A DNA stretch of 64,000 bases from Oscillatoriales cyanobacterium SM2_2_1 (lineage in GTDB: Bacteria; Cyanobacteriota; Cyanobacteriia; Pseudanabaenales; Pseudanabaenaceae). The stretch covers positions 182 through 64,181 of the forward strand of contig JAAUUH010000004.1 of NCBI GenBank assembly GCA_012031145.1, read 5' to 3'. Shown here one piece after another: positions 31,329-57,750 of the stretch (within the stretch, counting starts at the first letter, position 1; each line of letters begins with the position of its first letter). The translations under genes and the position numbers were made by a program. The notes beneath the pieces are model-generated. The model searched no databases. It saw only the letters and a list, made by a program, of their open reading frames with translations, and was not told where the DNA came from.

Positions 31329-31796
31329 ATGAACTATGACCTGCGCACCGCAACCGACATCTACGCCATGGCTAAGGTGCAGCAGTGGTTTGCCGCCATC
31401 CCCAACATCCCCCCCAAGGTTCGCATGCAGTGCAATCTGGTCTTGGTTGAGATTTTTACCAATGTGGTGTGCTACGCCCATGCCGACCTGCCGGAAGACA
31501 CCCCTATCGACCTGCTGGTGATAACCGATAACCAGGGGTTAGAACTGCACATCTGGGACTTCGGGGCCCCTTTCGACCTGCGGCGGGAGGTGGAGCACCA
31601 GCGCGATCGCCACGAAAAAGCCCTCGAAAACCTTGATGACTTGCCCACGGGAGGGCGGGGACTCATGATCACCGATTCTATTGCCGATCAGTTGGAATAC
31701 ATGCGCTTACCCGACGGCCGGAATCACTTTCGGATGCGTAAAAACTTTTCCCCTAGCTTAGATGCCGATGCTGCACAGCCAACTGAGCATACTTAA
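31329..31796 (+). CDS. anti-sigma regulatory factor-type Ser/Thr kinase (HATPase_c_2, RsbW/SpoIIAB-like)
   Basis: LVLVEIFTNVVCYAH...GGRGLMITDSIADQLEY. It starts 3 nt after the desulfurase stop. Confidence 0.7.
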   Translation: MNYDLRTATDIYAMAKVQQWFAAIPNIPPKVRMQCNLVLVEIFTNVVCYAHADLPEDTPIDLLVITDNQGLELHIWDFGAPFDLRREVEHQRDRHEKALENLDDLPTGGRGLMITDSIADQLEYMRLPDGRNHFRMRKNFSPSLDADAAQPTEHT

Positions 31797-33003: not shown

Positions 33004-33633
33004 CTAGTTATTAATACAACCTTGTTCCCCCTGAGACCTCACGCGCAGAGCACCCAAGATAGTTTGTCTTGCGATGCAGCGCCTCCGCCCGCTTTCAGGT
33101 TGATGCCTTAAAACAAGTCGTTCTCCATCCCCATCTCCATCTGCGGTAGTTCCAACATCTACTCCGCCATTGTTAAATTCCGCCTCTCTGACTCCTCGGC
33201 TATCATATTTTGATACAAAAACACCGCCACCACCATCTATCAAGTTCTTAGTAGAGGGAACTCCCGTATCTGCAATTAGCACGTTGGCAGGTAAATCTTG
33301 CCAAGGCACATTGGCATAGCGCGCATCGTCATCGGGCACCCCAGGTAGAGTACTAACAACTGCAAACTGAGCATTGCGCCCATCGGGACGATTACGAAAC
33401 CGCACCTGCCAACTGCGTTTCTCTTTTTTGGCATTGCTCTGGGCAGTGCTTAGACTCCGTACAACCGTGATTTGGGCATCGCTCAATCTTTGATTGATCT
33501 GAAAACCAATAAAGTTGGGAGCCACGATCGCCGTTAGCACCCCCACAATGATCAACACCACCAAAGCTTCTAGCAGCGTAAAGCCAGAGTTACGCCGCCG
33601 GTTTCGACTAAACAACCTAAAATTCATCCGCAT
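33004..33633 (-). CDS. prepilin-type pseudopilin (GspH/FimT-like; HpsD position)
   Basis: Class III signal RRRNSG|FTLLEALVVLIIVGVLTAIVAPNF with Glu+5. GGAG lies upstream of the ATG. Confidence 0.8.
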   Translation of the reverse strand: MRMNFRLFSRNRRRNSGFTLLEALVVLIIVGVLTAIVAPNFIGFQINQRLSDAQITVVRSLSTAQSNAKKEKRSWQVRFRNRPDGRNAQFAVVSTLPGVPDDDARYANVPWQDLPANVLIADTGVPSTKNLIDGGGGVFVSKYDSRGVREAEFNNGGVDVGTTADGDGDGERLVLRHQPESGRRRCIARQTILGALRVRSQGEQGCINN

Positions 33634-33653
33634 AATTTCAGCTCCGGTGCTTC

Positions 33654-35036
33654 CTAGCTATCAATGTTAAACAATCCCCGCCCAAGAACCGTCGTGCTGC
33701 CCGTCACCAACTCCGCCGAATTTTGTCCGCTTTGCCTAAAGTTAATGTTTGGCTGCAACCGCACCCGATAATTAGCACGAATCCAAATCCGCGCCGAGGT
33801 TTGGTTGGGCCTCCCGGCATTTGCTATACAGACATAGAAACTTGTATAGGTGCCTCGGGCAGCGCCGCCACTGATGACCCTTGCAAACCTTGGGTCAGCG
33901 TTTTGCTCAAACTGCCCCGGAATCCTTTGAGCGATGTGAGTTGAAGGATCGGCAGGGTTGTAGTCTTCCACCCCAACCCCTCGGTTGGGATCGGAGCAAT
34001 CTTGATTAACAGTAATAATGTTGGGAGCACTGCCAGTCGTCGTGTTTGGCCCCACATCAACGCGCACAGCATTGTTGGTTGCACCCCCAGTATCCTGACC
34101 ATTGACGTAGGGTGAGTCGTCAACGAAGTCGAGGAGAACCTCAGCTGGATTGCCAGTGCCATAGCTCCCAGAGGGTCGCCATCTGTTGAATTTTTCCTTG
34201 AGGGTTCCGGCAGAAGCGAGATCGAAAGGGGCAAATCCGTCATCAGAATTCACGATAAACCCACTCCTGCGAAAAATCTCATTCTGCAGGAGGGTTGCCC
34301 CAGAACCAGGTGGAAGGACAGCACTAGGTGGGGTGGGACAGCCTGGCGCTGCTCCACTCCGCGCAGCGTCGATGGATGAACCGTTAAAGCAAGACCATGG
34401 AACTCCATCCCTGAGTTCAAAACGAATGATGCGTGCAGCGTTGGACCATACGCCAGGTGTATCAAAATCTGCGGGGTTATCGCTATCCTTTTGCAAATAA
34501 TAGGACACTAATGAATACCTGAACTTTCCTCTCCCCTTAGGAACCCCATCTGGGGTGCGGCAATCCGAGTCATTGGCACCAGCGTTTTGGTTGTTGTACT
34601 CCAAGCAGCCAGCCAGCCATGAGGTTCCGTCAATACGTCTTACCCGAGTCGTAGGCGACAAAAAAGATCGCTTCCAGAACACCAATATGGGGATGCGATT
34701 TACTCTGTCAAAGAACCGCAACTCGTCAAGAATTCCGCCATTCGCAGCATTTCTCGATACAGCATCTGCATCGTAGATGTAAACTGCTTCCTGAAGATCA
34801 TCGGCAATGAATCGCAGAGCCGACTGCACTTCATCCTGAGTGGCAGCTTTGGCTTCCTCTATTCGGTTTGACTCCAAAATACTGGTTAAAAAAGTCAGGA
34901 GCACTGCCACCAGCAAAGATGCAATTAATGCCGAGACCAGTAGTTCCAACAGAGTGAACCCTCGGCTTCCGCGTCTGCCAAACCATACCCTCCGGCGACC
35001 GAGCCATCCCGCAAATTGCCTTACCGATGACATCAT
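33654..35036 (-). CDS. large prepilin-type pseudopilin (PilW/GspJ-like size; HpsC position)
   Basis: GRRGSRG|FTLLELLVSALIASLLVAVLLTFL. 460 aa. GGAGG lies 8 nt before the ATG. Confidence 0.8.
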   Translation of the reverse strand: MMSSVRQFAGWLGRRRVWFGRRGSRGFTLLELLVSALIASLLVAVLLTFLTSILESNRIEEAKAATQDEVQSALRFIADDLQEAVYIYDADAVSRNAANGGILDELRFFDRVNRIPILVFWKRSFLSPTTRVRRIDGTSWLAGCLEYNNQNAGANDSDCRTPDGVPKGRGKFRYSLVSYYLQKDSDNPADFDTPGVWSNAARIIRFELRDGVPWSCFNGSSIDAARSGAAPGCPTPPSAVLPPGSGATLLQNEIFRRSGFIVNSDDGFAPFDLASAGTLKEKFNRWRPSGSYGTGNPAEVLLDFVDDSPYVNGQDTGGATNNAVRVDVGPNTTTGSAPNIITVNQDCSDPNRGVGVEDYNPADPSTHIAQRIPGQFEQNADPRFARVISGGAARGTYTSFYVCIANAGRPNQTSARIWIRANYRVRLQPNINFRQSGQNSAELVTGSTTVLGRGLFNIDS

Positions 35037-35051
35037 ACTTTTTCCTCCCTA

Positions 35052-35741
35052 TTACCTGAGAACCACATCACGGGACACTTCACCACGGATAATTACCAAC
35101 GGGCAATTGCGATTGCCGAGTCTAGCGCCAAAGGTGGTGCCACTTTGTCCGCAAGCGCCACCAGATTCACCGCGTTGCAATGGCACAACCGTGCCCGTAA
35201 TGTTTGCGCCACCTGTAAAAGCATCGGCTCGATAGACCCGTGCCGCGACCTCAAAGGGATCACTATCAGTTCCGGTCGGACGAAAGCTGGGATCGGGAAA
35301 CACAGAATCGTTATACATGGGTTGAATCACAAGATCCTGCGGATCGTCGGTGCTGAACCCATTGCCATTGGTGTCAACACGAACGCCGGGCAAATTATTG
35401 AGTGCCGCAGGGGCAATGCCACCACCTCCCCCCGGTGCTGGCACTTGATCAAAAAAGTAGGAGTTCGTTGCTGAAGTCACACGAATTGTTGGTTGGGTAC
35501 GCAACTGTGACAGGGTAATCGCGCGGCTGGTCACCCGGTCAATAAAGCCACGCCCGGCACTGGTAGCCAAATCTACCCGTCGTGCTTGCACTCGAGCGCT
35601 GACAGAAATCGCCACTAGGGGCGTAATTGCCACCAAGAGCACACTAACCACTACCGAGGCCACCAACGATTCAAGAATTGTAAAACCGTCAGTCGGTCTA
35701 CAGCACTTCAACATCAGCAACAGGAATTTTTTTCGATCCAT
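35052..35741 (-). CDS. prepilin-type pseudopilin (HpsB position)
   Basis: CCRPTDG|FTILESLVASVVVSVLLVAITPLV with Glu+5. 229 aa. Confidence 0.8.
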   Translation of the reverse strand: MDRKKFLLLMLKCCRPTDGFTILESLVASVVVSVLLVAITPLVAISVSARVQARRVDLATSAGRGFIDRVTSRAITLSQLRTQPTIRVTSATNSYFFDQVPAPGGGGGIAPAALNNLPGVRVDTNGNGFSTDDPQDLVIQPMYNDSVFPDPSFRPTGTDSDPFEVAARVYRADAFTGGANITGTVVPLQRGESGGACGQSGTTFGARLGNRNCPLVIIRGEVSRDVVLR

Positions 35742-35836
35742 AGAACAACACCGTACTCAGGTTATGCGTTATTAAACCACTGGGATTTCCCTAGGCAAAG
35801 GGAAGAGTCGTAAACAACTCCTTCCCTCGCCGCCAG

Positions 35837-38800
35837 CTAGTTGACGTAAGTGGTTGGGAAACAATTATTAGGTAGATCCCGCTGACCTGCGAGCGCCCGC
35901 CTTGTGTAGTTGGTGAACTTGGTTAGGGTGCGCTGGGGTCGGGTAAGGTTGACTTCGGCATTGACGCCCGTTCCTGAGGCTGTCCCGGGGTTGGCAGCGT
36001 TGGGATTGACCGGCTCTGCCGCACAGAGCAAGGTGGCTATGTAGGGGTCGTTGCGGTCAGTTTCCCTAAAGAAATCACTGAAGTTAGGCAAGTCCCTAGA
36101 GAACCGTTCTGCAAAGCGATCTGGTGCCTGGGTCAGCAAGCCGACATCGAAGCCCCAGTTCCGTTGTGGCGGGTTGTAATACGGCAACCGCAATAGGGCG
36201 AAGGATCGATAAATGGCATCGGGAGTTGCATCATCGTTATCAAAGTCGCCGAGACGGTCGTTAAACGTGTTGTTGTCAAGGGCATTGACGAATAATGACT
36301 CTGGCACGACGGTGTTTTCTGGTGCATTGGGATCGCGATAGGGACCAGTTTGGGCAAAGGGAGCTGTGTCGAATTGGCTACGGGTGTTCTGCAGGAAGCC
36401 CCCCGCAATGTTCAGCGGTACCTCTGTCCAGTTTTCCATGAGACGAACAAAGTTCGGTAAGCCACCTCCAGTTTCACCGGTGATATTCCCTGTGGCACCA
36501 ATACCCGTAACCGTAGCGAACGATCTGGAGGGCGTTGTACCAGCCACAGTATAGATATTGATCTCACTGGCAACAGCTCGCTGGTTCCACAGACCATTAG
36601 TTGCCGAGGGCAATCCACTAATTGTCCGGGCATCATTATTAATAATTGGAGCAAGGTTCTGAGTGCCGGTATTGGTAGTGTCACCTGGACTAGACGGCAC
36701 ATGGAAATGAACCACTGGCACAGTGAGCGGCTCGTTGGTCGTGGTCATAGCCACAGCCACCGTATTTTCGTTCACATCGCTAGAACGGTAGCCTAGGAAT
36801 CGCACACCGCGCAGAGCAACTCTGTCCGTAATGGTGAGGGTTGTGGTTTCTGCAATTGTGTTGCCACCGGCGAGTGTGGTGCGACCAATGAAGTTGCCAG
36901 CCAAGATGGATGGCGTTGCAGGAACTGAGTTGAACTCCTCGTAGGTAAGCTCGGTGGTTCCGAGGGTCACGGTTGGGTTAGTGAGCTTGTAGAGGTTAAT
37001 ACTTCCCGGAGACAGGACAGGGATGACTCTATTGGCAGTGAGTTCTGCAGCGTCATCGAAGTCTGTAACCCGTGTTAACGGACTACCAGGGCCAGGGTAA
37101 GTATAAACCCCGTTTTGTGTGCGGTTATTCTGTCCCGTCAGCAGAATGCGGATACCGCCACTAGGAGCAGTTGCTCCTGTACCATCGGCAAGGTTGACGT
37201 CTGCAGTCTCTACTGCTGCCACAGGCTCAGGCAGAAGGGTGAAGTTTTTAGGCGCGCCGGGAACGGCGGGAGAGCCGAAGGGGAAGGGGTCGTTACTGAG
37301 CTTAAAGAAGCGGTTGGCACTGCTCCCCTCGAAGACACGCACAGTCACACCCTGAACCGCATTGGTGGCACTCTCATCGAAGTCAGCAGCAGGAACTGCG
37401 GCAGACCCAGCACTTTCGAAAATGTAGATGCCGTTTTCAGCCGGAGCGGACTGGTCTTTCACCAAAAAGCGATCGCCCGAAGTCAGTGGTACGCCATCGA
37501 CCGTTGCTGGCATTAGGGCCAAGTTGACATTGACCGTTGTCGCCACACGAACATCCCGCAGGGTTGGCTGGGCAGGAATGCTTTCTAAAGCAACGGCATC
37601 GGTACTATTCAGGCGCGGAGTAAACCAAAATACATTGTTGGGTTCTACTCCCTCTAACTTCAGGCGCACCCCCGAAAGCTCGAGGTCTTCTGTGGGACTG
37701 CCTTGGAGGATAAATACCGGACTTGGGCCACCATTGGGATTTGCCCGCAGAATGATGGTAACTCCACGGAACTGGTCATTGGAGCCGCCCGTATCTGGGT
37801 CGCCGGAGTTGTAACGGGTAGGAACCGTCGTATTGGCATCAATTGTCGTGTTGTTGAGCACGCCGCCAATAGTGCGAGTACCAGTGGAAACAACACCTAA
37901 CCCGTCACGGCTGAAATTATAGACATTGACGCGATTATTGCTGAAGGTATTGGCAGCGGTGAGGATAATCTCCCTTGGTTGGGCAGAATCGCCTTCAATT
38001 TGCACGTTCGCCGCGCGGTTCAGGGGCTCGGTGATAGGTACCGTTGGGCGAACGAGTTCAATACCTTGGAACGTGCCAGCGGGTTGGGCTGGGTCAAACG
38101 CTGGGGTGCTTAGGGTGCTAAAGAACTGAACAATCGCCGCCCGGGGATTACCCACATTAGTCGGGCACGAGTTAGTAGTAAAGTCTTGCCGCGCGACATT
38201 ACCACCCAAGGTTGTCTGGCGAGATTGATACTTCTGGGATCTGCCCGTTGCACCGCAGATGGCAAAGGCCGAAGCAGGACGAATGCTGACATCAGCAGGA
38301 TATAGGGGGTTGGCAGGTAAGTTGAGGTTGGCGATTACCGCGCCGGGCGTCGAACCCACAGGTTCGGGACGCTCACAGGTGGCATCCACAAATCCATCCC
38401 GGCTGTCGATACACACCGTGTCGGGCAGCACAAGGCGATCGGGGTGCAAGGGGTTGTTGGAATTATTGCTACCCGTTTGGGGCCAGGCACTCTGGAACAG
38501 ATACAGAGCACGGCCGCCATCCCAATTGAATCCCGCGGTGTCGCTTTCTCCGGGGTAGTTGCTTCGACTAGTGGTGCGGAACCAGAGGGCGCGATCGCTG
38601 AATTCAGGATAGGTATTCGTCATCCCCGGCAGCATGGGCAAGCGACCTGAATCATTGTTAGAGACAATCACCGGCGAGTTGGGCGGTGGCAGTTGGGAGT
38701 TATAAACCGCTTGGCTAGTGGTATCGAAGTCGTTGAATGATCGACCAAAGAGCGATCGAATGGGGAACAGAGGTGTGGTGCCGTCCGCAGGAACCGGGCT

Positions 38801-41800
38801 GGTACTGCCCACCGCGCATCGTGTGGTGCCGCTGTTGGGCGCACCTTGGTAATTGATCTGCGTTTCTGCCGCCCCATCACAGTTGGGGTAGCGGCTGGGC
38901 ACCGCTGAACGCTCAGCAAAGGGATAGGCCGCTGCGGGCTGGGGCAACAGGGTGCCAAAGGGCAGCCCAAGCACACCAATCCGGGGTGGTGCAGTCATCC
39001 CAAACACCGGCGGTGTAATGGAACCAGTAAAAATGGGCCCAGGCGTCGGCGAGGGCGACGGGGAGGGCGACGGGCTGGGGCTAGGGCTGGGTGACGGGCC
39101 AGGGGGGCAGGGCGGATAGGTCGCCGTAATCGTCTGAACGGTGTTGAAGTTTGCCACTGGTGCCGCTGGAGGTGGCTGCAACCCGTCATCGCTGTTTGAA
39201 CCAGGATTGCTGAACGGAACGGCTGACCCAACTGGCGTGAAAATATCTGGGGCACCAGGAATATCATTGACCGTGCCTGGGCAATTTCTACCTGGGAAGC
39301 GATTACGTCTCCGGGGTGTGTTCGTTCCTGACTGGGCGGCCGTGCCGTTTGCCTGGGTGATTCGCGCATCCCGGCGGGTTTCCGCTTCCACTGGAGTAAT
39401 TTCGGCATCGGCGTTGGGCACAACCCCCACTAGGCGCAGCCGGAAGTCTTCGTTGTTTTCCTGGAAGCTATCCCGCACCACCAGCACATCCACCTCGGCA
39501 GAGGTGGCTCCAACGGGAATTTCTAGGAGTTGACAGCCATTCGCGGGCGTCAGAGTCGGGCAAATCCTCGTGCCGGGGGTGCCCGTACTATTGGTGGCAT
39601 AGACCGCTGGCAGGTAGTCTACGCCCACACCGCCGGGCGTGGTGTCATTGGAGGGGGTACCGTCGGCATTGACCGGTTGATTGGTGCCTGTGAGTGCTCC
39701 AGATTCGAGATTTTGGTTTGCTGGCTTAGCGCGGTTACCCGTGGTTAAAGACTCTGTCCGCACGGCAACGGGAATGGGCACGGTGCGGGTCACAGGGGGA
39801 GCGCCCGCAGGGAGGAAGGTCTCAATCCTGAACCGGAACCGGCGATAGGTAGCAGTGTTGTCTTGTCCGGGAGCATTATTGGTGCCATCCCCAGTCCCAG
39901 TCCCACCGACGACATTACGTGCGCCTCCGGTGAAATTCGGAGCGGGCAGGGCACCACTCAGCAGCGAAGGTACATTGCGCACGCGACCCTCTCTTTCCTC
40001 GAGACGGCTGCCAAAGTTATTTACCCTCACCTGTAACTTCACTGGCTCCACATCCTTGGCGCAGGGAACATCGCCATAGGCGCTGAAATTGTCGGTGGCA
40101 CTGACGGCGCGTCCCCTAAAGGGAGTTACTTGGCCGGCCCCAAAAATGTGGGGGTAGGTGTAGGCATTGGTTTGGTTGCCAGCATTGCCGTTATTCGCTT
40201 GGTTTCGTATGCCAATGGGAATAGGCCAGGCTCCTGGAAGGGCAGTACCTTCATCTTCCATGGGGCAACGGGCCGACATCACCAGGGCCTTGTTGCCATC
40301 CCCATAGATGTCATCAAAGCGCAGGAAGGCCAACCGCCGGGCATAGCGGTAGTCCGCTGGGGCAATGTAGCGGGGGCGGCTTCTCTGATCGGCTAAGGTT
40401 CCCCCATAGGTGACCGCATCGGGCAGGGCCGTGGTGCCCGCGCCTTCGGCTTTCCAATCATCAATTCGGCATTCGGAAACCGGGAGCTTGCTGCAAATTT
40501 CCATGCTGTACTCCCGGGTGAGAATGCGCCGCTGAATCGGCGTCACACCATTAGACAGGAAGGAAGACCGATTGCCTTGGGGGTAAAGGGTGCTTGTGCT
40601 GCCCGCGCCGCCATCGGAGTTGATGGTGGTGAGGAAGTTGGCGCTAGTGACAAAGCTATTGTCATAGAATCCTTTCCTGCGACGCTCAATCACATAGCTG
40701 CTGTCTTTGATTTTTTGAACTTGGTCATTGCGGCGATCATTCCATTGCAGGCTCGTGGAAGTGTCGGCATTGTTCCTGAGGTCATAATCCCCATCGCTGC
40801 GGTAACCTTCGCGATATTCGGCGGATTGGATGGAGAAGGCATCGGCTAAAACCGTTGCCGCCCGCCAGTTGTCTCCCTCAGTACATCCAGCAAACTGTCC
40901 AGGACGGCAGGCAAAGTTGGTATCGCGCGCCGCACGGCTATAGAAGTTTGACCAGTTGGCAGCCAAAACTTCGGTGAACTCTTCGTGGGTGTGGACGTTA
41001 AAGCCGGAGGCAGGCAAGACTGCTGCCTTACCGGTGTTGGTGGGGTTGGGCAAACCAACCGGACGGCGTTGGGCTTTGAGGTAGGTGGGAATGTTGCTGA
41101 CCAGAATCAGTCCCTTCTCCCCACGGGTGGTTTGGGTAAAAGCAGGCTGGGCATTGACACCGGTGCCATTGCGCCGCCAGAGGCTATAGCCATTGATCAT
41201 CCGAACGGCGCTGGGGCGACGGGTAGGGTCAAGCACAAAATCCGTGGCGCTCAACTCGGCGGTGCTGCTGGTGGTATCGGCTAGGGCATCTTCGCGGGTG
41301 GCATAGACAACGCCGCTGTAGGGCAGCATGTATTCAGTGGCAACACCATTACCACCGACAACAGCGTTGTTGGCCCCGGTGATAGTGGAGCTGCGTAATT
41401 TGTCGAGGTCGAGGTCGGTAGCCCGAATTTCCAGGGGTTCCCGTTGCTCGATCTGTAAATCATAAACATCTGCTCCATTGCTGGCTAGTCCTGAGCCAGT
41501 GCGAATCAAGGAGTTGCGATTGTCGCTGACGGTTCGGAGTTCCGGCCCATCCTGCACTGAGTAAGGGTACATATACTCATTGCGATTCAAGGCTTTTACC
41601 TCCCGTCCATCGAGAAAAGCAGACTCTTTAACTAGTCCATGGGGGAGCTCAGCGCTGTTGAGCACCGGCACAGCACCGGACTGGGGAGCAATGGTGCCGT
41701 CGGCGATTTGCAGGGCGCACAGGTTGGCATCAATGGTGGCTTGCTCGACGATGGTAAGGTTGGCATTGGCGAAGTTGCCGCCGTCGTCAAAAACTTTACG

Positions 41801-44800
41801 CAGAACCGCACGAAGGGGCTCGTTGGCAAAGCGACCATTGGGGAAGATGAGGTTGGCTTGATAGGCCAGGCGATCGGCGACACTTACGCCAGCGTTGGCG
41901 GGGTTTTCAGCGCCCGCAACGACACTGAATTGCCCCGTAGTTGCATTGAAAGTAGATGTAAGCGGGGGAAGGGCACCAGCAGTTAGTCCGACGTTGTAAA
42001 CAATGCCATTGTTGGATCGTCCGGTGGTGCGATCGACAATAGTTTCATCGTTATTGAGCACATCAGGTAAGTTGGGCCAGGGCAAACCCTGGCGGTTGAG
42101 TGCGGATGCTCTCAGTTGATTGGTGGCACTAATTGGCGTGAAGGGATTAGCAACATAGGAGTAGGAGGGATCGTAATAACTGCTGACACAAGCCAAAGGA
42201 CGTTGGTAGTCCGTGGGATTGGTGGGGTCAAAGGCATCAAACTTGTAGTGATAGATAGCCGATGCGCGCATTTGGAGGTCACCCTTGAGGGGTTCAGTTT
42301 CCGATGCTGTCATGGGCATATTATCGGGCCAAACGACAAAGTTGACCCGTGCCCGCTCGGCTTCAGTGGCGGTGACAGGAGCAATACCGGCAAATCGCGC
42401 CTCATTAAAGGGAGTATTGGGGTTGTCCTTAGGTGCGGCTGATTCGTCAATGTCGTTTGTTGCGGGGCTGTCAAGCAGATTGGTGTGATAGCGCGGCAGA
42501 AAGGTGCCCGGAGCATCTACAGTGGTAACGCCGGGTGCACGCAAGCGGGTATAGATCCCAGCGTTGGTGATGACCCTCAAGCCGCCAAAGGTGGGGGTGG
42601 TGTTAGGGGCAGAGTTGCGGGGTTCAGCAGGATCAAGGGGATCCGCAGGGTTAGAGGCTGCCGAAATTTCCCAGAAGCCGCCGCGAGAGACTTCCCCAAG
42701 AACGTTACCCGGCTCAGCTTGGGTGACACGGTACCGGGGGACAGGCAAAGGATTGGCGGGGTTGGTGGGATCATTCCAGAAAACGTTGTTGGCCGTGGAG
42801 ACGGGGGCGCGGTTGTCTTCAATTTCGGAGCGGTTGGTGGCGAAGAAGATGCGTCCGCCATTGTTGCGGAGCCATCGGGCAGGAAGATTGTTGCCCACAT
42901 TAACGCGATCGCCCAAAAGACGCTCTTGATCGGTGCGCAGACGGGTGGGATCGTTGGCCGGCAAATCGAGCAAAGCTCCGGAAACATTAACTTGCAGCGC
43001 CGGGTTGCCAGCGACCAAGCCAGCCCCATCAAGGGCTGCCCCAAAGGCTGCGGCAGCGCGGGTAAGGGAGCCGCCATTTTCATCGAAAGGAAAGGCCCAC
43101 TGAATCGGGGGACGCAGTTCAGTGCCCCCATCAATAGTGAGCACCGTCAGAAGGGGGGCGGGGTCGGTGGGGCAGATCAAATCTAGACCGGTGGCGGCAT
43201 TCCCATCCGCATCGCAGGTGCTTAGGTTGGTTTGGGCTTGGGTAAAGGAAACCTCACGACTAGGAACTTTGCGGGTGCGCTCTCGGAAGTAGGCTTGGAG
43301 GGCACGCCTACGGGCTTGATCAAAGCCCGATTGGGTGGTTAAACCTTCATCGAAGACGGCATCGGCGATAAATTTGCGAACGGATTCTGGGTCGGGATAA
43401 GTAACATCGGTGGTTCGTGGGCGGGCTCCTCCACCAGGAAGGTTCACGGTTCCACCCCCCCGGGCGATCGCCGCTCGCACAAGCACTTCAATCCGCCGAC
43501 TAAATTCAGCATCGTTGCTCAGTACATCCCGACCGCGGTTGGTGTTATTGTCAACAACACTCTGTCTGGCAGCGGTAAAGGGTTGACGTCCACCGCCTGT
43601 GGTCTCAGGATTGGCGTTATCTCTCAAAAACAGGTCAAATCGAATCGCGCCCGTGTCACCGGTTGCCGATGTCGCATCCCCAATAACCGCATTGCCAGCT
43701 ACTAGCACCTTGGCATTTTCAGGACGGTAATAACAGGAGCCTGCTGCGGTACCTGTGGTGGTGGGGTTATCGCTAGCGCTAACTTGGTAGAATGTGACTT
43801 CGTTGCCAGCGCCTGTATTGGCGCGAACCAGCAAGTTACCTGAAGTGTACACCCGACCATTGAGGCGGAAGGCAGGAGTACGAGTGATTTCAAGGTCGCT
43901 TTCAAAGAATACGGCGTTGTTGTTAAGGGGGAACCGTTCCCGGTCTTGCTGCAATTCAAGGGCGCTGATGGAAGAAATGCCCCGGTACTGCTCGTAGTTG
44001 TTGGCATCAGCGGCGCGGCGTCCAGCAATAGAAGTGGGATCGTTGTTGCCCGAGGGGATGATGGATCCGGGGTCAGTAATGGGTACAGTGACCGCATAGG
44101 CAAAAAATGCTTTTTTCAGCCGGCCGTTGGAGTCGATCCAGCCCTCGGTGGTAGCAACGTTGGCGCTAGCGCCAACACAACCGTCCGTAAGCGCCCCCTG
44201 ATCCTGGGGCAGCCCCCGGGCTTCCATGATCGATGTGGCGCGGGAGGAAGCTGTGGCAATGGGTCGGGCACGGTAGATGATGCTGTACAGACCGAAGGAG
44301 TCGAAGCGGCCGTTACCATCGGTGTCGATGGGGAACTTCCAAGCGGTGGTTAGGGCTTCGGTGTTGGCGACATTATTGGGGTCAACACGGACACTTGCAG
44401 CGTTGCCATCAACATTAGGATCGGCAATGACGAGGCGAATCTCATCATCGTAGGTATAGCGGGCATCTTGAAGGACATCATTAAGGACGAGGTCGCTGGG
44501 GGTAGTCCGAGGGAGCCGGTCATCGGCTAGCAGTTGGGCAATCTTGGCCCGGGCCCGGTCAATCAGGGGTGTATTGGTGGAGCGGAGCACCTGCTCAATT
44601 CGGGAATTGGCAGCGGTCTCGGCGCGTTGGGCGGAGTTGGAAACAACGGTGACCACGGCCAGGGTTGTGACGGCAGTTACCAAAACCACGACGGGCAACA
44701 CAAACCCAGCTTGATTGGCATTCTTACGGCGGGAGGAACTCTGGAGGTCGCGGACAAGGCGGCGGCTAATCCGGAAGGGGCTGCCCGTCCTAATTAACCA

Positions 44801-44866
44801 TTTGCGCAACTTAGCGACAAAGTCAGCTAAAAATTGGAGGAGATTGCGATTTTGACGAGATGACAT
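35837..44866 (-). CDS. hpsA: giant (3009 aa) extracellular protein with pilin-like N-terminal segment; HpsA-like by gene order
   Basis: One uninterrupted 9030-nt ORF. N-terminus ...RRKNANQAG|FVLPVVVLVTAVTTLAVVTVVSN. Rich in N/T/G/P/A, with a (PS)n linker, one Calx-beta-like segment and two repeated modules. It is followed by three pseudopilin genes, as in the Nostoc punctiforme hps locus. The family call is from synteny and memory, not from a search. Confidence 0.55.
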   Translation of the reverse strand: MSSRQNRNLLQFLADFVAKLRKWLIRTGSPFRISRRLVRDLQSSSRRKNANQAGFVLPVVVLVTAVTTLAVVTVVSNSAQRAETAANSRIEQVLRSTNTPLIDRARAKIAQLLADDRLPRTTPSDLVLNDVLQDARYTYDDEIRLVIADPNVDGNAASVRVDPNNVANTEALTTAWKFPIDTDGNGRFDSFGLYSIIYRARPIATASSRATSIMEARGLPQDQGALTDGCVGASANVATTEGWIDSNGRLKKAFFAYAVTVPITDPGSIIPSGNNDPTSIAGRRAADANNYEQYRGISSISALELQQDRERFPLNNNAVFFESDLEITRTPAFRLNGRVYTSGNLLVRANTGAGNEVTFYQVSASDNPTTTGTAAGSCYYRPENAKVLVAGNAVIGDATSATGDTGAIRFDLFLRDNANPETTGGGRQPFTAARQSVVDNNTNRGRDVLSNDAEFSRRIEVLVRAAIARGGGTVNLPGGGARPRTTDVTYPDPESVRKFIADAVFDEGLTTQSGFDQARRRALQAYFRERTRKVPSREVSFTQAQTNLSTCDADGNAATGLDLICPTDPAPLLTVLTIDGGTELRPPIQWAFPFDENGGSLTRAAAAFGAALDGAGLVAGNPALQVNVSGALLDLPANDPTRLRTDQERLLGDRVNVGNNLPARWLRNNGGRIFFATNRSEIEDNRAPVSTANNVFWNDPTNPANPLPVPRYRVTQAEPGNVLGEVSRGGFWEISAASNPADPLDPAEPRNSAPNTTPTFGGLRVITNAGIYTRLRAPGVTTVDAPGTFLPRYHTNLLDSPATNDIDESAAPKDNPNTPFNEARFAGIAPVTATEAERARVNFVVWPDNMPMTASETEPLKGDLQMRASAIYHYKFDAFDPTNPTDYQRPLACVSSYYDPSYSYVANPFTPISATNQLRASALNRQGLPWPNLPDVLNNDETIVDRTTGRSNNGIVYNVGLTAGALPPLTSTFNATTGQFSVVAGAENPANAGVSVADRLAYQANLIFPNGRFANEPLRAVLRKVFDDGGNFANANLTIVEQATIDANLCALQIADGTIAPQSGAVPVLNSAELPHGLVKESAFLDGREVKALNRNEYMYPYSVQDGPELRTVSDNRNSLIRTGSGLASNGADVYDLQIEQREPLEIRATDLDLDKLRSSTITGANNAVVGGNGVATEYMLPYSGVVYATREDALADTTSSTAELSATDFVLDPTRRPSAVRMINGYSLWRRNGTGVNAQPAFTQTTRGEKGLILVSNIPTYLKAQRRPVGLPNPTNTGKAAVLPASGFNVHTHEEFTEVLAANWSNFYSRAARDTNFACRPGQFAGCTEGDNWRAATVLADAFSIQSAEYREGYRSDGDYDLRNNADTSTSLQWNDRRNDQVQKIKDSSYVIERRRKGFYDNSFVTSANFLTTINSDGGAGSTSTLYPQGNRSSFLSNGVTPIQRRILTREYSMEICSKLPVSECRIDDWKAEGAGTTALPDAVTYGGTLADQRSRPRYIAPADYRYARRLAFLRFDDIYGDGNKALVMSARCPMEDEGTALPGAWPIPIGIRNQANNGNAGNQTNAYTYPHIFGAGQVTPFRGRAVSATDNFSAYGDVPCAKDVEPVKLQVRVNNFGSRLEEREGRVRNVPSLLSGALPAPNFTGGARNVVGGTGTGDGTNNAPGQDNTATYRRFRFRIETFLPAGAPPVTRTVPIPVAVRTESLTTGNRAKPANQNLESGALTGTNQPVNADGTPSNDTTPGGVGVDYLPAVYATNSTGTPGTRICPTLTPANGCQLLEIPVGATSAEVDVLVVRDSFQENNEDFRLRLVGVVPNADAEITPVEAETRRDARITQANGTAAQSGTNTPRRRNRFPGRNCPGTVNDIPGAPDIFTPVGSAVPFSNPGSNSDDGLQPPPAAPVANFNTVQTITATYPPCPPGPSPSPSPSPSPSPSPSPTPGPIFTGSITPPVFGMTAPPRIGVLGLPFGTLLPQPAAAYPFAERSAVPSRYPNCDGAAETQINYQGAPNSGTTRCAVGSTSPVPADGTTPLFPIRSLFGRSFNDFDTTSQAVYNSQLPPPNSPVIVSNNDSGRLPMLPGMTNTYPEFSDRALWFRTTSRSNYPGESDTAGFNWDGGRALYLFQSAWPQTGSNNSNNPLHPDRLVLPDTVCIDSRDGFVDATCERPEPVGSTPGAVIANLNLPANPLYPADVSIRPASAFAICGATGRSQKYQSRQTTLGGNVARQDFTTNSCPTNVGNPRAAIVQFFSTLSTPAFDPAQPAGTFQGIELVRPTVPITEPLNRAANVQIEGDSAQPREIILTAANTFSNNRVNVYNFSRDGLGVVSTGTRTIGGVLNNTTIDANTTVPTRYNSGDPDTGGSNDQFRGVTIILRANPNGGPSPVFILQGSPTEDLELSGVRLKLEGVEPNNVFWFTPRLNSTDAVALESIPAQPTLRDVRVATTVNVNLALMPATVDGVPLTSGDRFLVKDQSAPAENGIYIFESAGSAAVPAADFDESATNAVQGVTVRVFEGSSANRFFKLSNDPFPFGSPAVPGAPKNFTLLPEPVAAVETADVNLADGTGATAPSGGIRILLTGQNNRTQNGVYTYPGPGSPLTRVTDFDDAAELTANRVIPVLSPGSINLYKLTNPTVTLGTTELTYEEFNSVPATPSILAGNFIGRTTLAGGNTIAETTTLTITDRVALRGVRFLGYRSSDVNENTVAVAMTTTNEPLTVPVVHFHVPSSPGDTTNTGTQNLAPIINNDARTISGLPSATNGLWNQRAVASEINIYTVAGTTPSRSFATVTGIGATGNITGETGGGLPNFVRLMENWTEVPLNIAGGFLQNTRSQFDTAPFAQTGPYRDPNAPENTVVPESLFVNALDNNTFNDRLGDFDNDDATPDAIYRSFALLRLPYYNPPQRNWGFDVGLLTQAPDRFAERFSRDLPNFSDFFRETDRNDPYIATLLCAAEPVNPNAANPGTASGTGVNAEVNLTRPQRTLTKFTNYTRRALAGQRDLPNNCFPTTYVN

Positions 44867-44975
44867 AGAGTTCCCCTAGTTCCTACCTGAGATCTGGTTT
44901 GATACTACCCACGACTGACAAGAAATTATCACGAATTAAAATTTTGACTCGGTGCTGGCGATAACTTTGGTTGGG

Positions 44976-45569
44976 CTAGGCAAAAAAGCGGGGTTGGAAG
45001 GATTGGGCGATCGCCCCGCAGAGCAGACCAATCACCATACTGAGGGCAAGGGAGCCGTAGGCGAGTTTGGGTGGCAGCTCATGGGACTGGGTTTGGGGGC
45101 CAAGGATGGCGATCGCCCCTAGCACCAGACCGAGGATCATTCCCGAACCCCAGTCGGAAAGGCGCTGAAACAGGGCAATGGTCATCACCATGGATAGGGA
45201 TATCGTGCCGGCCAACCCCAGCCATTCCCACCAGCGTAGGGACGGTTCTGCATTGACCTTGTAGTCGGCCTGCCGCACGCCAAACCAGGTAATGGCAACA
45301 CCAACGCCTAGGGTGATCAACGCACCGAGCCACCCCAGCACAAACCCGGCGGCGATCGCCCCCAAAATAACGGCAAACAGCCCGCCGATGCTGGCGGGAA
45401 TAGCCCACACATTCAGCAGACTCACTCCGGCAATTAGCCATAGCCATGGGGACTGACCCCGCAGATGCAGTTCATAGATCATCTGCCCGATGAAGTAATG
45501 GCCAACACCTAGCCCCAGGAGGGGAAGGCAAAAACCAAGACCTAATGTGTAGGTTCCGATACGCACCAT
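44976..45569 (-). CDS. multi-pass membrane protein, hypothetical
   Basis: 197 aa with about 6 Gly/Ala/Ile/Leu-rich helices, 109 nt upstream of the giant gene on the same strand. Confidence 0.55.
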   Translation of the reverse strand: MVRIGTYTLGLGFCLPLLGLGVGHYFIGQMIYELHLRGQSPWLWLIAGVSLLNVWAIPASIGGLFAVILGAIAAGFVLGWLGALITLGVGVAITWFGVRQADYKVNAEPSLRWWEWLGLAGTISLSMVMTIALFQRLSDWGSGMILGLVLGAIAILGPQTQSHELPPKLAYGSLALSMVIGLLCGAIAQSFQPRFFA

Positions 45570-45651
45570 AAAGTTCTGTCGCCGTGATGAGAATCTGGAG
45601 GATTAGGGGGAATACTAAAAGAAATTACCGAAGGTCGCAATCGTGGGGGCT

Positions 45652-46410
45652 ATGTATTTGTCGGTGGTCATCCCGGCCTATAACGAAGAAAAAAGGATAG
45701 CCGCCACTCTGGAGGCTTTGGCGGTGGGGATTCCCAGCCAGTTTTATCCCTACGAGGTGATCGTGGTTAACGATGGCAGTGGCGATCGCACGGCGGCGGA
45801 AGTGACCCGGTTGCAGCGGGATATGCCCAACTTGTCGCTGATCAACTTAGAGCAGAACTGCGGCAAGGGACGGGCGGTGGCGGTGGGGATGCTGGCGGCC
45901 CAGGGTGCCTATCTTTTATTTATGGATGCCGATCTGTCTACCCCGCTAACGGAGGTGCCTCGGATCATGCACTGGCTAGAGTCGGGTTGGGATCTGGCGA
46001 TCGGCTCTCGGGCCCTGCCCCAGTCGGTGATTGAGATACACCAACCCCTATTTCGGGAATGGATGGGCAAAATCTTTAACCGGCTGGTGCGATGGTTAGT
46101 TATTCCCGGCATTCTGGATACCCAGTGCGGCTTTAAAGGGTTTCGACGCGAGGCGGCCGAGGTGATTTTTAGCCATTTGGCCACGGCGCGGTTTGGCTTT
46201 GATGTGGAAGTTTTACTGTGGGCGCGCCATTGGGGATTTAGGGTCAAGGAGGTTCCGATTCGGTGGCGCAATGCCCCCTACTCCCGGGTGTCGCCCTTAA
46301 CTGATTCTTGGGAGATGTTTTGGGCGTTGGTGCGCCTAAAGCGAGGATTTCAGCGTCGAGTGGCAACCTATCGCGGCAACCTGCCCCTATTTGAATTAGC
46401 CCGTAAGTAG
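45652..46410 (+). CDS. family 2 glycosyltransferase (dolichyl-phosphate glucosyltransferase-like)
   Basis: MYLSVVIPAYNEEKRI...VIVVNDGSGDRT...LFMDADLSTP...GFKGFRR. Divergent from the hpsA-side genes. Confidence 0.85.
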   Translation: MYLSVVIPAYNEEKRIAATLEALAVGIPSQFYPYEVIVVNDGSGDRTAAEVTRLQRDMPNLSLINLEQNCGKGRAVAVGMLAAQGAYLLFMDADLSTPLTEVPRIMHWLESGWDLAIGSRALPQSVIEIHQPLFREWMGKIFNRLVRWLVIPGILDTQCGFKGFRREAAEVIFSHLATARFGFDVEVLLWARHWGFRVKEVPIRWRNAPYSRVSPLTDSWEMFWALVRLKRGFQRRVATYRGNLPLFELARK

Positions 46411-47925: not shown

Positions 47926-50900
47926 CTACATCGCGGCGCTGGGGCGTAGCTCTAAACCCAAAACTTGGGTGTGGGCACCCCGGGCTTGGGTGACGCCAAT
48001 GGTGCGATCGGCCGCTTCGATCATCGGGCGGCGCAAACTGACAACAATAAATTGAGCTAGGGTGGCTTGCTGTTGCACCATGCGGGATAGGCGCTCGACG
48101 TTGGCTCCGTCGAGGAACATATCCACTTCATCGAAGGCATAGAAGGGAGACGGGCGATAGCGCTGCAAAGCAAAGATAAAGCTGAGGGCGGTGAGGGACT
48201 TTTCGCCTCCGGACATGGAACTTAGGTGCTGGACGGGTTTGCCCTTGGGGTGGGCAACGAGGTTGAGACCTCCGCTGAGGGGGGCTTGGGGATATTCCAG
48301 TTGTAGGTAGCCATCACCGTCGGACAGTTCGGCAAAGATGGTCTTAAAGTTTTGATTGACGGCCTCAAAGGCTTGCAGAAAGGCCCGCTGACGCAGGGTG
48401 GTGAAGTTTTCGATGCGGATCAGCAGTTCGGTGCGCTCTTGGTTGAGGGTTTCAAGGCGATCGCTCAGTTCGGTGAGGCGATCGGTGACGGCGTCATATT
48501 CGGCGATCGCCATCATGTTAACAGGTTCAAGGGCTTGAAGCCGTCGTTGCAGGCGGCGCTGCTCGTTTTGCAGTTGCTCTAGGGTGAAATGCTCGGGAAT
48601 GGGTGGGCAGGGGTCAGGAAGGACGATTTGGGACAGTTGGTGCTGAATTTGGGAAAGTTGGTTGGTAAGTTCAGCGACGGTTTCGATGTGTTTTTGCAGT
48701 TGCCATTGGTATTGCTGCTGGTTGCGTTGCTGTTGTTGGAGCAGACGATGGGCTGCGTCCCGCTCTTCGCGGGTGTTGCTCAGGGTGAGCTCTAGTTCGC
48801 TGAGGCGCTGCTGATAGTGCTGAATTTGGCTGGTGAACTGTTTTTCCTGGGACTGGGACTGGGCAGTGAGGTTAATCAGTTCGGTTTGTTTGGTGCGAAG
48901 TTCTTGGATCCGCAAGTGGCGTTGCTGGATTTTTTCGTGGGTGCGCTGCTCTTGATGACTGAGTTCGACTAAGTTTTGCTGGCGCGATCGCAGGTCTTGG
49001 TCGAGGGACTGCCATACGGCTTCCTGTTGGTTGAGGGCTTCCTGGGCCTGTTGCCAGCGGGTGTGGGTGCTGGACTGCTCCAGCTCAGCTAGGGCAGTTT
49101 TGTGTTGTTGCAGGCGGTGCTCGTGGGCGATGAGTTGGTCTTCGAGGTGCTTAAGCTGGGCTTGGCCGATCTCAATGCCCCCGCTATGTTGCTGAATTTG
49201 CTGCTGCAGGCGCTGCCGTTCCTGTTGGTGAAAAGACTGCTGGGCATGAATGCTTTCGGCCCGCAGTTGGATGGCATGGTGTTGTTGGCGCAGCTTGATT
49301 AATTCTGCTTCGAGGGTTTGGATGGTGTTCTGTAGCGATCGCGATTTTGGCTGCAATTGATTGAGCATTTGGTCGATGGCTTGGAGCGATCGCGCAGGGT
49401 TTTGGCTTCCTGGGACTCCCGTAGGTCTGTAGTTCCAAAATGTAAGCTTTGGCTGGGGGGCTGACTGCCGCCGGTCATGGCCCCAGTTGATTCCAATAGA
49501 TCGCCTTCCAATGTCACCATCCGGTAGCGACCAATGTGACGGCGGGCCTCCTCTAGGTGCTCATAGACGAGGGTCTGCCCAAATATAAAACCGAACACAT
49601 CTTGATATTCCGACGCAAACTGCACCAAGTTCACCGCGTAGTCGATCGCCCCTAAATCCCTCGCTTGGTGGGACCAGGGCAGACTAAAGGACTTAAGCTT
49701 GTTCAGGGGTAAAAATGTCGCCCGCCCCGCCCGCTCCAGCTTCAATAAATTGATTGCTTCGGCGGCTACCTCATCGTCTTCGACCACCAAAAAACCCAGA
49801 CGGCTACCCGCTGCGATCTCTAGGGCCAACTGTGCCCGGGGCTCCACCGTTCCCAACTGAGCCACCAGTCCGTGGATGCCACGCAGGGATGCCGAGCGAA
49901 TCACCTGAATGGCCTTAGTGCCGAAGGTCTCTCGCTGGGCTTGAACTTGGGCATCAAGACGATCCAGTTGCCGTGTTTTTTGTTGCTGCTCGGCTTGGAG
50001 GCGATCGGTGGTCTCCCGAATCACCTGCACCTCCATTTGGGCATCGCTGAGGGCCCGGGACACTCCCTGGATCTGGGTTTCGATCGCCCCAAGTTCTATT
50101 TGGGGAGCCGTTGGCGTGGTGGGTGGATGGCTCGGGCCGAGGGCTTCGAGGTCATTTTCCGCTTGGGTGCGTTGCAACCACCATTGGCGCACCGATTCCT
50201 GCAAGCGAATTTGCTCTTGGCGCAGGGGATCCACTTGGGTTTGCAGGTCATCAATTAATTGATACAGCTTGGCCTGCTGCTTTAACCACTCCGCCGAAGC
50301 CGTGGCAATGTCGCTGAGTTCTTGTCGCTGCTGCTGGACTAGGGCCTGCTGGCGATCGCTCAATTCCTGGACCGGCCTAATCTCAACCTGTTGGTGCTGT
50401 TGTTGTTGGATGACCTGTTCGAGGAGCCGTTGCAGGTCGCCAATTTCGGTTTGCGTCTGACCCAACTGCTGTTGTGCCCGATCATAGGATTGCATTAGTT
50501 CCTGCTGTTGTTTTTGCAGAGACTTTAATTCCGCCTGTTTGGCTGCCAGATGCCCCGCTTGCTGCACGTATTCCGATTCACCCAAGTCATGGACACGGGC
50601 ATTAAGTTCGTTATATTGCACGGTTGTCAGGTCAATCTGGCTTTGCAACTCGCCCAGCTCCTGCTGCAATTCCCCCGCGGCCTGCTGCGTCGTGCGCAAG
50701 GACTCTTCCTTCAAAGTCCGCTGGTATAGCCAGTGGCGCTGGGCCAAGACCAACTCCGCCGCATCCAATTGGGACAGTTCATGGCGAAGGGCCTGATATT
50801 TTTCAGCCTTAGCCCGATCGCCTTGGAGCTTCTCCTGGGCTAACTTGAGCTCCTGCTCGACGATCCGAAAGCGATCCTCCTGGGCCTTGACATCATCGAG

Positions 50901-51443
50901 TTTTTCCTTAGCGGTTTCGATCTTGCGGTCAAACTCTCCCACCCCTGCCAGTTCATCTATAATTTCCCGCCGCTCTCGGGCATTCATGGAGATAATTCCT
51001 GTCACGTCCCCCTGCAAAACCACGTTATAGCCTTCGGGGTAAACATGGAACTTGGCTAGTTGTTCGTGCAGCTCACTGAGGGTGCAGGGGGAACCATTGA
51101 CATAATAAGTTGAGGTGTAGGTGCCCTGACTGGTCACCCGCAACTTGCGCGAAATCGTCCAATCTCCCATCGGCACCTCGCCATCCACGGCAAAGGTGAC
51201 TGACACACTCGCTTCCACCGTTCGCCCCTTTTGGCTATGGCTTTGATTGACCAAATCCGGCAGCCGATCCGCCCGCATGCCCTTAGACGACGATAGGCCC
51301 AAAGCAAAGAGCAATGCATCCAAAATATTTGACTTGCCCGAACCATTGGGCCCCGAAATCACCGTGAAACCCGGAAGCAGGGGGATGGTGGTTGAAGCGC
51401 CAAAAGATTTGAAGCGAGTTAGCTCAATCTGCTTTACATACAT
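47926..51443 (-). pseudogene. smc: chromosome segregation protein SMC, split by a frameshift near 49300-49400
   Basis: The N-terminal ORF (49299..51443) has Walker A FTVISGPNGSGKSN and the hinge. The C-terminal ORF (47926..49368) has [17 protein letters not shown] and Walker [13 protein letters not shown]. The frames join cleanly as ...KTLRDR|[12 protein letters not shown] if one base is added at 49385/49386. Confidence 0.9.
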
Positions 51444-57684: not shown

Positions 57685-57722
57685 GCCTAGTATGGCCTAG
57701 GCATACAAAGAGCGTTCGTCCC

Positions 57723-57750
57723 TTGACAATGCTTGTGATCGCTCTATAAT
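57723..57750 (+). promoter_or_regulatory. near-consensus sigma-70 promoter upstream of pilM
   Basis: TTGACA (57723-57728), a 16-nt spacer, then TATAAT (57745-57750). It is about 50 nt upstream of the pilM ATG. Confidence 0.5.

Follow-up and report, generated by a model that had tools for sequence, protein, structure and literature searches.

Gene content and organization of the locus

The window analysed here is a stretch of 64,000 nucleotides (nt) of contig JAAUUH010000004.1 (GenBank assembly GCA_012031145.1, Oscillatoriales cyanobacterium SM2_2_1), and the subject of the analysis is an operon of four consecutive minus-strand genes within it, hpsA to hpsD, of the kind known from the hormogonium polysaccharide secretion (hps) locus of Nostoc. 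The four open reading frames (ORFs) agree exactly with the coordinates given in a preliminary description, which had been made from the letters of the window, and are separated by spacers of 95, 15 and 20 nt, respectively. Lengths are given in amino acids (aa), and the preprint is that of Schuergers et al. (bioRxiv 10.64898/2026.02.12.705559).

35837..44866, minus strand: hpsA, 3009 aa, candidate giant minor pilin of the PilX type (EPS class)
35052..35741, minus strand: hpsB, 229 aa, pseudopilin, PilV(EPS)-type in the scheme of the preprint
33654..35036, minus strand: hpsC, 460 aa, pseudopilin of PilW/GspJ type
33004..33633, minus strand: hpsD-type pseudopilin gene, 209 aa, candidate adapter of FimT/GspH type

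The four genes are a real cyanobacterial hpsA-D operon of a known kind, which can be annotated automatically, from an uncultured lineage. The proposal of the preliminary description that they represent an hps-type module as in Nostoc is supported by the equivalog score of HpsA, by the position-specific similarity of the small proteins to HpsB, HpsC and HpsD of Nostoc and by the conserved gene order.

The class III signal peptides of the three small proteins read as had been quoted, namely TDG/FTILESLV in HpsB, SRG/FTLLELLV in HpsC and NSG/FTLLEALV in HpsD (the slash marks the cleavage site), each with G at -1, a hydrophobic alpha1N segment and Glu at +5, and all three proteins were matched by the models for prepilin N-terminal methylation (TIGR02532 / PF07963). 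The ribosome-binding sites claimed for the last two genes are likewise present, as GGAGG before hpsC and GGAG before hpsD.

Family identity and conserved gene order

HpsA was matched by the NCBIfam equivalog model NF038301 (EPS_HpsA) with 1117.5 bits (cutoff 400) in two stretches, the best of which pairs aa 32-1530 with model positions 25-1222 of 1503. For HpsB and HpsC the best-scoring families by far were NF038303 and NF038304, respectively (their scores are weighed below). By BLAST, HpsB was aligned over its full length to HpsB of Nostoc sp. PCC 7524 (E 5e-16) and HpsC to HpsC of the same strain (E 3e-26), while the fourth protein was equally close to HpsD (E 1.4e-15) and HpsH (E 1.4e-16) of that strain. 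No dedicated NCBIfam model matched the fourth protein; it was recovered by generic pseudopilin models, among which the GspH-like one was the best minor type (a weak match), and its assignment as HpsD is backed by its position in the locus. HpsD carries a C-terminal cysteine pair (Cys186 / Cys206), and HpsC is about 140 aa longer than HpsC of Nostocales, as it is in other Pseudanabaenaceae.

The best matches outside the Hps families were weak and comprised PilV for HpsB, GspJ for HpsC (in its N-terminal stretch) and GspH for HpsD. Profile searches of the Protein Data Bank (PDB) with HpsB, HpsC and HpsD gave matches confined to the common N-terminal helix, and for this reason no PilV, PilW or FimT assignment of our own was made for these three proteins.

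Gene order was compared in the loci that have sufficient DNA downstream of hpsA (about 64). In most of them hpsA is followed by three ORFs with G[FY][TS]xxE signals, of about 230, 310-490 and 200-240 aa, and the first class III gene after hpsA is hpsB. Taken together, the family scores, the BLAST relationships to Nostoc and the conserved gene order establish that the four genes belong to the hpsA-D module.

As a separate observation, a fourth gene with a class III signal (196-200 aa) lies directly after hpsD, about 3 kb downstream of hpsA, in many Pseudanabaena loci (L008, L015, L020, L023, L028, L029, L034, L039, L041, L043, L049 and L051), and its GFTL[IL]E-type signal begins at residue 16-30, mostly 20. 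Its place is taken in the window and in the closest relatives by a multi-pass membrane ORF of 219-230 aa; in the window this ORF encodes 230 aa, starts 21 nt past hpsD and had been left unmentioned in the preliminary description.

Relatives, length and integrity of HpsA

Relatives of HpsA were found to be encoded by 546 genome loci in a scan of one genome per species, and the best 150 matches of the representative search were all HpsA-like. The closest ones are a protein from a Logan metagenome contig (P0001, 79% identity) and one from the metagenome-assembled genome (MAG) 'Cyanobacteria bacterium UBA999' (78%), followed by proteins of Pseudanabaenaceae (38-45%). When the C-terminal 1110 aa of HpsA were used for a further word-indexed search, only 14 proteins were recovered and the alignment became no deeper. 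One locus (L031, CALRKB020000015.1) consists of a full cyanobacterial hpsA-D contig filed under the MAG 'Rhizobium sp. Q54', and this contig is probably mis-binned or mislabelled.

The first gene had been called exceptionally long, which does not hold within its own clade: a length of 2400-3900 aa is the rule for HpsA in Pseudanabaena, Tumidithrix and related MAGs, against about 1500-1700 aa in Nostocales. In a BLAST map, an independent homologue of 2977 aa aligns collinearly with HpsA from end to end, and every region of HpsA is under purifying selection, with ratios of nonsynonymous to synonymous substitution rates (dN/dS) of 0.01-0.23 relative to the nearest relative. An ORF of 9 kb cannot arise by chance, and hpsA is a real gene.

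N-terminus and predicted structure of HpsA

The N-terminal half of HpsA is divided as follows.

44708..44866, minus strand: HpsA leader, aa 1-53, basic, unusually long, present family-wide and presumed to be cytoplasmic
44627..44707, minus strand: HpsA aa 54-80, class III-like cleavage motif G54/F55-V-L57-P58-V59 followed by a hydrophobic alpha1N, with Val and no Glu at +5
40217..44626, minus strand: HpsA N-module, aa 81-1550, containing the predicted head sheet, the D181-D189 loop, the first solenoid-like rungs and the block aa 1150-1520

The leader can be aligned across the whole HpsA family (RKWL..GSP.RISRR) and is 100% identical to that of P0001 although the 4-fold degenerate sites diverge by 0.32 (dN/dS 0.01 for leader and alpha1 together). 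In the AlphaFold model it forms two helices, at residues 3-27 and 35-44. The single hydrophobic segment of HpsA covers aa 52-80. No variation was seen at G54, L57 or P58 among 33-56 homologues, and the +5 residue is T or V in 46 of the 46 aligned homologues. HpsA has in this respect the Glu5-less N-terminus of class III type that characterizes capping minor pilins of the PilX / GspK type. At the other end of the protein, Cys2948 and Cys3002 are invariant.

An AlphaFold2 model of aa 1-1200, based on an alignment of 56 sequences, had a mean predicted local distance difference test (pLDDT) score of 72.4 and contained one helix of 57 residues (57-113), strands at 143-148, 171-180, 190-197 and 244-262, and runs of short strands from about residue 300. 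With the termini modelled separately, this order of helix, strands and short strands fits a pilin head followed by a solenoid. The predicted head domain also contains an invariant loop, D181-x-D-x-N-G-x-x-D189 (WKFPxDTDNNGKFDS; 44300..44326, minus strand), which appears to resemble the calcium-binding DxDxDG loop of PilY1 and of some pseudopilins.

Conserved modules, mosaic centre and phage-type insert of HpsA

The remainder of the protein comprises a variable centre, a conserved C-terminal part and, between and across them, two further segments.

37595..40216, minus strand: HpsA central region, aa 1551-2424, variable and mosaic, with a Pro-Ser linker near aa 1880-1900 and the module aa 2061-2424
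36791..37774, minus strand: ice-binding-like (DUF3494-type) putative beta-solenoid segment, aa ~2365-2692, recognized through PF11999 matches of homologues and interrupted by the insert
36917..37594, minus strand: phage virion-type insert, aa 2425-2650, two tandem domain copies in a loop of the putative solenoid
35840..36916, minus strand: HpsA C-module, aa 2651-3009, which ends with the invariant Cys2948 / Cys3002

According to the BLAST map, the N-module (aa 1 to ~1550) and the C-module (aa ~2650-3009) are common to every HpsA including those of Nostocales, aa 2061-2424 are common to long-form HpsA proteins only, and aa 1551-2060 are shared with few relatives. Identity to P0001 follows the same division, with 100% in the leader, 99% in alpha1, 87-94% in the N-module, 84-92% in the C-module, 38-53% in aa 1551-2060 and 77% in aa 2061-2424, and the occupancy of the central region in the family alignment is low (0.26-0.61). 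The divergence at 4-fold sites within identical amino acids is 0.52-0.64 over aa 1551-2424 versus 0.29-0.35 in the flanks and the insert. Furthermore, aa 1551-1850 are 71% identical to the UBA999 protein and 49% to that of locus L001, while the neighbouring module is about 85% identical to both. This central pattern appears to be the signature of recombinational cassette replacement, with some inflation through misalignment of the variable part being possible.

The most conserved block of the HpsA family, aa 1150-1520 (40310..41420, minus strand), contains dozens of invariant charged and aromatic residues. It had no relative in Pfam or PHROG, and a PDB search with aa 1150-1560 was empty. Pfam searches of the whole HpsA and of eight sub-segments (E up to 10) gave only a sub-threshold Calx-beta hint in the central region (E 0.18), those of three other long-form HpsA proteins gave no match, and the central region matched PDB sequences in a low-complexity stretch and nowhere else. 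No catalytic family was detectable in HpsA by Pfam, NCBIfam or PDB sequence searches.

The ice-binding-like segment was recognized through the homologues P0034, P0054 and P0057, in which PF11999 (Ice_binding) scored 37-38 bits against a threshold of 28.7; the matched segments align to aa 2365-2692 of the window HpsA, including GVEPNNVFWF ... LAGNFIG. The insert that interrupts this segment was matched by PHROG 2647 'head decoration' in two stretches (E 1.5e-37), by PHROG 24595 'virion structural protein' and by PHROG 11518 'tail fiber protein', and by orf22 of PDB entry 9efk (E 0.01). Its other relatives are proteins of 200-400 aa, some with YadA_stalk or phage Collar domains. Elsewhere in HpsA there were no PHROG matches, and the insert is confined to the window and to its two closest relatives, L001 and L005.

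Candidate promoter and intergenic hairpin

Two elements outside the coding sequences were recorded.

44902..44910, minus strand: candidate extended -10 promoter element GGGTAGTAT, similar to SigF / SigJ J-Box elements, 35 nt from the hpsA ATG
35794..35831, minus strand: predicted stable hairpin in the 95-nt spacer between hpsA and hpsB, just past the hpsA stop codon and with no U-tract

The element GGGTAGTAT is the sole match of its kind in the window. The form GGGTA[AG]TAT is found about 36-40 nt upstream of hpsA in most loci of Pseudanabaenaceae, and the loose pattern was present in 48 of 76 loci versus 11.6 expected. Over the 85 nt in front of hpsA, identity to L001 is about 98%, compared with 79% between the proteins. 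In Nostoc the J-Box of SigJ reads GGGaAtacT, and expression of hpsA-D depends on sigJ and sigF (PMC6495340). The motif agrees with this dependence, and transcription of the operon probably starts from a SigF/SigJ-type promoter just upstream of hpsA. A generic scan of the window for sigma-70 promoters and terminators performed no better than on shuffled sequence.

The spacer between hpsA and hpsB folds with -36.1 kcal/mol (z = -2.5). The 3' arm of the hairpin, GACTCTTCCCT, is invariant in L001 and L005, the complementarity of the 5' arm is kept via G-U pairs, and a conserved GTGGTTTAAT box follows. The hairpin could serve in attenuation or processing, or could influence stability and so set the ratio of HpsA to HpsB-D.

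Genomic surroundings

The window is cyanobacterial chromosome and carries genes for the orange carotenoid protein, CrtR, AcnB, enolase and further housekeeping functions. The type IV pilus machinery, with which the module presumably cooperates, is represented by one cluster outside the operon.

56047..62817, plus strand: hmpF-pilM-pilN-pilO-pilQ, type IV pilus machinery and a taxis gene

This stretch, in which hmpF lies directly upstream of pilM, is 11.2-18 kb from hpsA. HmpF was matched by NF038350 (463 bits), PilM by TIGR01175 (309 bits), PilN by PF05137 and PilQ by a secretin model; pilO had no family match and was assigned by position only. The preliminary description had placed pilMNOQ 11 kb away; hmpF starts 11.2 kb and pilM 12.9 kb from hpsA.

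A glycosyltransferase family 2 (GT2) gene (45643..46410, plus strand) begins 777 nt from the hpsA start, in keeping with the divergent GT2 gene reported about 0.8 kb upstream. It was tried as HpsE and scored 40.9 bits against a cutoff of 300, and on this score it is not an hps glycosyltransferase. None of the glycosyltransferases HpsE-G, HpsI and HpsK, nor HpsJ, is encoded adjacent to the operon; the other window ORFs scanned belong to housekeeping functions or to the pilus machinery, and the remaining hps genes may be located in another part of the genome. Between hpsA and the GT2 gene there is an ORF for a multi-pass membrane protein of 197 aa (44976..45569, minus strand), which, like the 230-aa ORF past hpsD, had not been mentioned before. 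Both membrane ORFs were considered as parts of the module and rejected, since their synteny is limited to the two closest relatives; together with the GT2 gene they were excluded because they are not syntenic in the 45%-identical MAG of Pseudanabaenaceae.

Some other genes of the window deserve mention. A 155-aa RsbW-like anti-sigma kinase (HATPase_c_2; 31329..31796, plus strand) is encoded 1.2 kb from the hpsD end, is syntenic in L001 and could belong to a partner-switching system. The smc gene (47926..51443, minus strand) is split into overlapping ORFs, of which 49299..51443 corresponds to positions 1-685 and 47926..49368 to positions 691-1165 of the SMC model, which points to a frameshift near 49300-49370 through a sequencing error or in a pseudogene. 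Similarly, glnA (8113..9551, minus strand) is apparently disrupted, with a 391-aa ORF that covers positions 81-462 only of the GlnA model and a 159-aa ORF (9072..9551) that overlaps its 5' end. The two splits amount to two likely frameshifts in 64 kb, either in the assembly or in the genome. A protein of the Npun_F2552 family (523 bits; 24629..25585) and the orange carotenoid protein (18639..19601), both encoded on the minus strand, are ordinary cyanobacterial markers.

Proposed function and alternative explanations

The preliminary description had considered the role of HpsA-type proteins to be undefined in any organism, which is no longer wholly the case, since they were assigned in 2026 to a family of PilX-type capping minor pilins (doi 10.64898/2026.02.12.705559). 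In that preprint, HpsA-like proteins are described as PilX(EPS), capping minor pilins that lack Glu5, have a large solenoid set into the pilin fold and co-occur with PilV(EPS), and PilX(EPS) together with PilV(EPS), PilW and FimT-type pilins is proposed as the priming and tip complex of long adhesive motility pili. It is also reported there that the pilA9-12 set of Synechocystis primes long motility pili and that deletion of tlr0680-82 in Thermosynechococcus abolishes phototaxis; HpsA proteins of >1280 aa were assigned via their InterPro family, without modelling.

On the present evidence we put the probability at roughly 60% that hpsA-D encode the EPS/motility-class core minor-pilin set of a cyanobacterial type IV pilus, which serves as its priming and tip complex. 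The signal motif, the missing Glu5, the operon logic, the ice-binding-like segment and the nearby pil machinery agree with the reading of the preprint, and the apparently recombined, fast-evolving centre and the phage virion-type domains of HpsA fit an exposed tip adhesin.

In such a mechanism, all four proteins would enter the inner membrane by the N-terminal hydrophobic helix and would be cut by prepilin peptidase after the conserved Gly. HpsB (PilV-like) and HpsC (PilW-like) would pair with HpsA; because HpsA has no Glu5, no subunit should dock above it, so that it would cap the filament as a subunit of the PilX/GspK type, and HpsD (FimT/GspH-like) would join this tip complex to the major pilin. 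The complex would prime pilus polymerization on the PilMNOQ platform and would then remain at the distal tip. There the extracellular part of HpsA (~2900 aa), with its predicted beta-solenoid segments, its variable centre and, in this lineage, its two phage-type domains, would act both as a plug and as an adhesin that probably binds either the surface or the motility polysaccharide made by the cell itself.

Several points weigh against this interpretation. HpsB and HpsC remained under the cutoffs of their NCBIfam models (113.6 bits against 150 for NF038303; 197.2 bits, marginally under 200, for NF038304), in contrast to HpsA. The conserved leader of 53 aa is far longer than usual prepilin leaders and is atypical for a prepilin. 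The window HpsA itself scored below the Pfam threshold for Ice_binding and had no Pfam match. For aa 1900-3009 the model was of low quality (pLDDT 53.7), the best-ranked Foldseek matches of this model were ice-binding proteins with non-significant E values of 2-4, and the solenoid predicted for the window HpsA gains no independent confirmation from fold searching. Foldseek against the PDB gave nothing significant for either HpsA model, whole multi-domain models being poor queries, and PDB profile searches with the N-terminus gave chance matches only. How a tip protein of ~300 kDa would pass through the PilQ secretin is not obvious. To our knowledge, HpsA has as yet been placed at the pilus tip by experiment in no organism. 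Finally, permanently gliding filamentous cyanobacteria are reported to have no visible pili and yet to retain the hps locus (PMC12475490). As regards the pilin fold of HpsA, the fold searches neither confirm nor refute it; Foldseek and PDB profile searches yielded neither a sequence nor a fold match to GspK or PilX.

The alternative that survives best, which we nevertheless consider unlikely, is that HpsB-D form a short periplasmic pseudopilus like that of type II secretion, with HpsA as its cap, and that it cycles as a piston which pushes motility polysaccharide through PilQ, the main task of the module being export and not the assembly of an external pilus. The hps locus was originally explained by a pseudopilus piston, a model that continues to be defended (PMC12475490), hormogonium polysaccharide secretion in Nostoc requires these genes (PMC6495340; 10.64898/2026.02.12.705559), and the weak best matches outside the Hps families include GspJ and GspH in an operon near a secretin gene. 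However, the best score for a major pseudopilin of the GspG type was 31.8 bits (HpsD) against a cutoff of 88.85, dedicated GspE/F/L/M genes were absent among the window ORFs scanned, and adjacent hps glycosyltransferases are lacking, as described above. The homologous set of Synechocystis primes real external pili (10.64898/2026.02.12.705559), and a variable, recombining ectodomain of ~2900 aa with phage surface domains is hard to fit to a purely periplasmic piston. The piston-export and pilus-tip models are not mutually exclusive.

A more specific version of the pilus-tip interpretation, which we regard as decidedly speculative, is that HpsA in this lineage confers specificity in a modular way and evolves in the manner of a phage tail fibre, with a tandem pair of glycan-binding domains of phage virion (tail-fibre / head-decoration) type captured within the solenoid and a central cassette of ~870 aa swapped between strains by recombination. 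If this were true, the motility pili of closely related filaments would grip different targets (the trail of their own slime, filaments of kin or certain surfaces), and the module would serve strain-level adhesion or kin recognition, perhaps in an arms race over phage receptors, rather than act as a generic pilus primer.

It is improbable that HpsA stays in the inner membrane as an uncleaved bitopic protein, whose leader would contact the pilus motor or a chaperone and whose periplasmic solenoid would act on the nascent polysaccharide as a scaffold or as a lyase- or hydrolase-like enzyme. This explanation would account for the family-wide and very strongly constrained leader and for the invariant charged and aromatic residues of the block aa 1150-1520 (including H1292, E1296, D1342, R1356 and R1446-R1447), and beta-solenoids are common in polysaccharide lyases and hydrolases. 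It is opposed by the failure of the sequence searches to detect a catalytic family and by the invariant G-F-x-L-P placed exactly at the expected prepilin peptidase site, and a pilin is also the better fit to the terminal cysteine pair and to the close and conserved association with three genuine pseudopilin genes.

An origin of the long ORF as an artefact of assembly, by gene fusion or as a decaying gene without function, as the split smc and the apparently split glnA in the same window might suggest, is effectively refuted by the full-length collinearity, by the low dN/dS in every region and by the wide occurrence of long forms in the clade.

The module belongs to cyanobacterial gliding and slime laying, which underlie the behaviour of mats, biofilms and blooms, and the window adds a clean long-form example of hpsA-D from an uncultured lineage related to Pseudanabaenaceae. 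The findings mostly support the hypothesis published in 2026 and do not overturn current thinking. The tandem phage-type insert, the mosaic and apparently recombined centre and the clade-wide SigF/SigJ-like motif are new but incremental, and the constrained long leader is likewise a useful lead. The long leader, Pseudanabaena and phage-type domains are not mentioned in the preprint (bioRxiv 10.64898/2026.02.12.705559). Experimental handles are provided by the 53-aa leader before the Glu5-less signal, which bears on the cleavage of HpsA, by the promoter motif, which bears on SigF/SigJ control outside Nostoc, and by the phage-type domain pair and the recombining cassette, which bear on HpsA as an exposed adhesin.

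Comparison with known systems

Among known systems, ComZ of Thermus thermophilus, as named in the preprint, resembles the proposed HpsA by a pilin fold that is interrupted by a large solenoid. However, ComZ serves DNA uptake and not motility, and it was not recovered in PDB sequence and fold searches with HpsA.

The proteobacterial tip adhesins PilY1/PilC are comparable in the proposed role of a large tip plug or adhesin, in being encoded with minor pilins and in the DxDxNGxxD loop as a putative calcium-binding loop. Their C-terminal beta-propeller domain had no Pfam match in any segment of HpsA (E up to 10), and HpsA has a pilin-like N-terminus of its own, whereas PilY1/PilC dock as non-pilin proteins.

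In the GspK-GspI-GspJ(-GspH) tip of the type II secretion pseudopilus and in the PilX-PilV-PilW-FimU set of Pseudomonas type IVa pili, it is well established that one Glu5-less cap is combined with three Glu5 subunits, and the present operon similarly encodes a Glu5-less protein together with three Glu5 minor (pseudo)pilins. The cap would here be about 10 times larger, and neither its sequence nor its predicted fold was matched to GspK or PilX.

With the hps locus of Nostoc punctiforme, the operon shares a first gene of the same family, three Glu5 pseudopilin genes in the same order and a related -10-like motif. It differs in that HpsA is twice as long (3009 versus ~1500-1700 aa), with about 1100 extra residues between the N- and C-modules, that HpsB and HpsC fall under the model cutoffs, and that no hpsE-K glycosyltransferase genes are adjacent, the GT2 gene not being hpsE; moreover, the organism is related to Pseudanabaenaceae and is not a hormogonium former.

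A further parallel is the cyanobacterial PilX(EPS)-PilV(EPS)-PilW-FimT set of the preprint. The pilin fold of HpsA is here a prediction that fold searching has not confirmed, and the two systems have in common the four-gene set, the Glu5-less cap with its putative solenoid and the same proposed role in priming and at the tip of the pilus.

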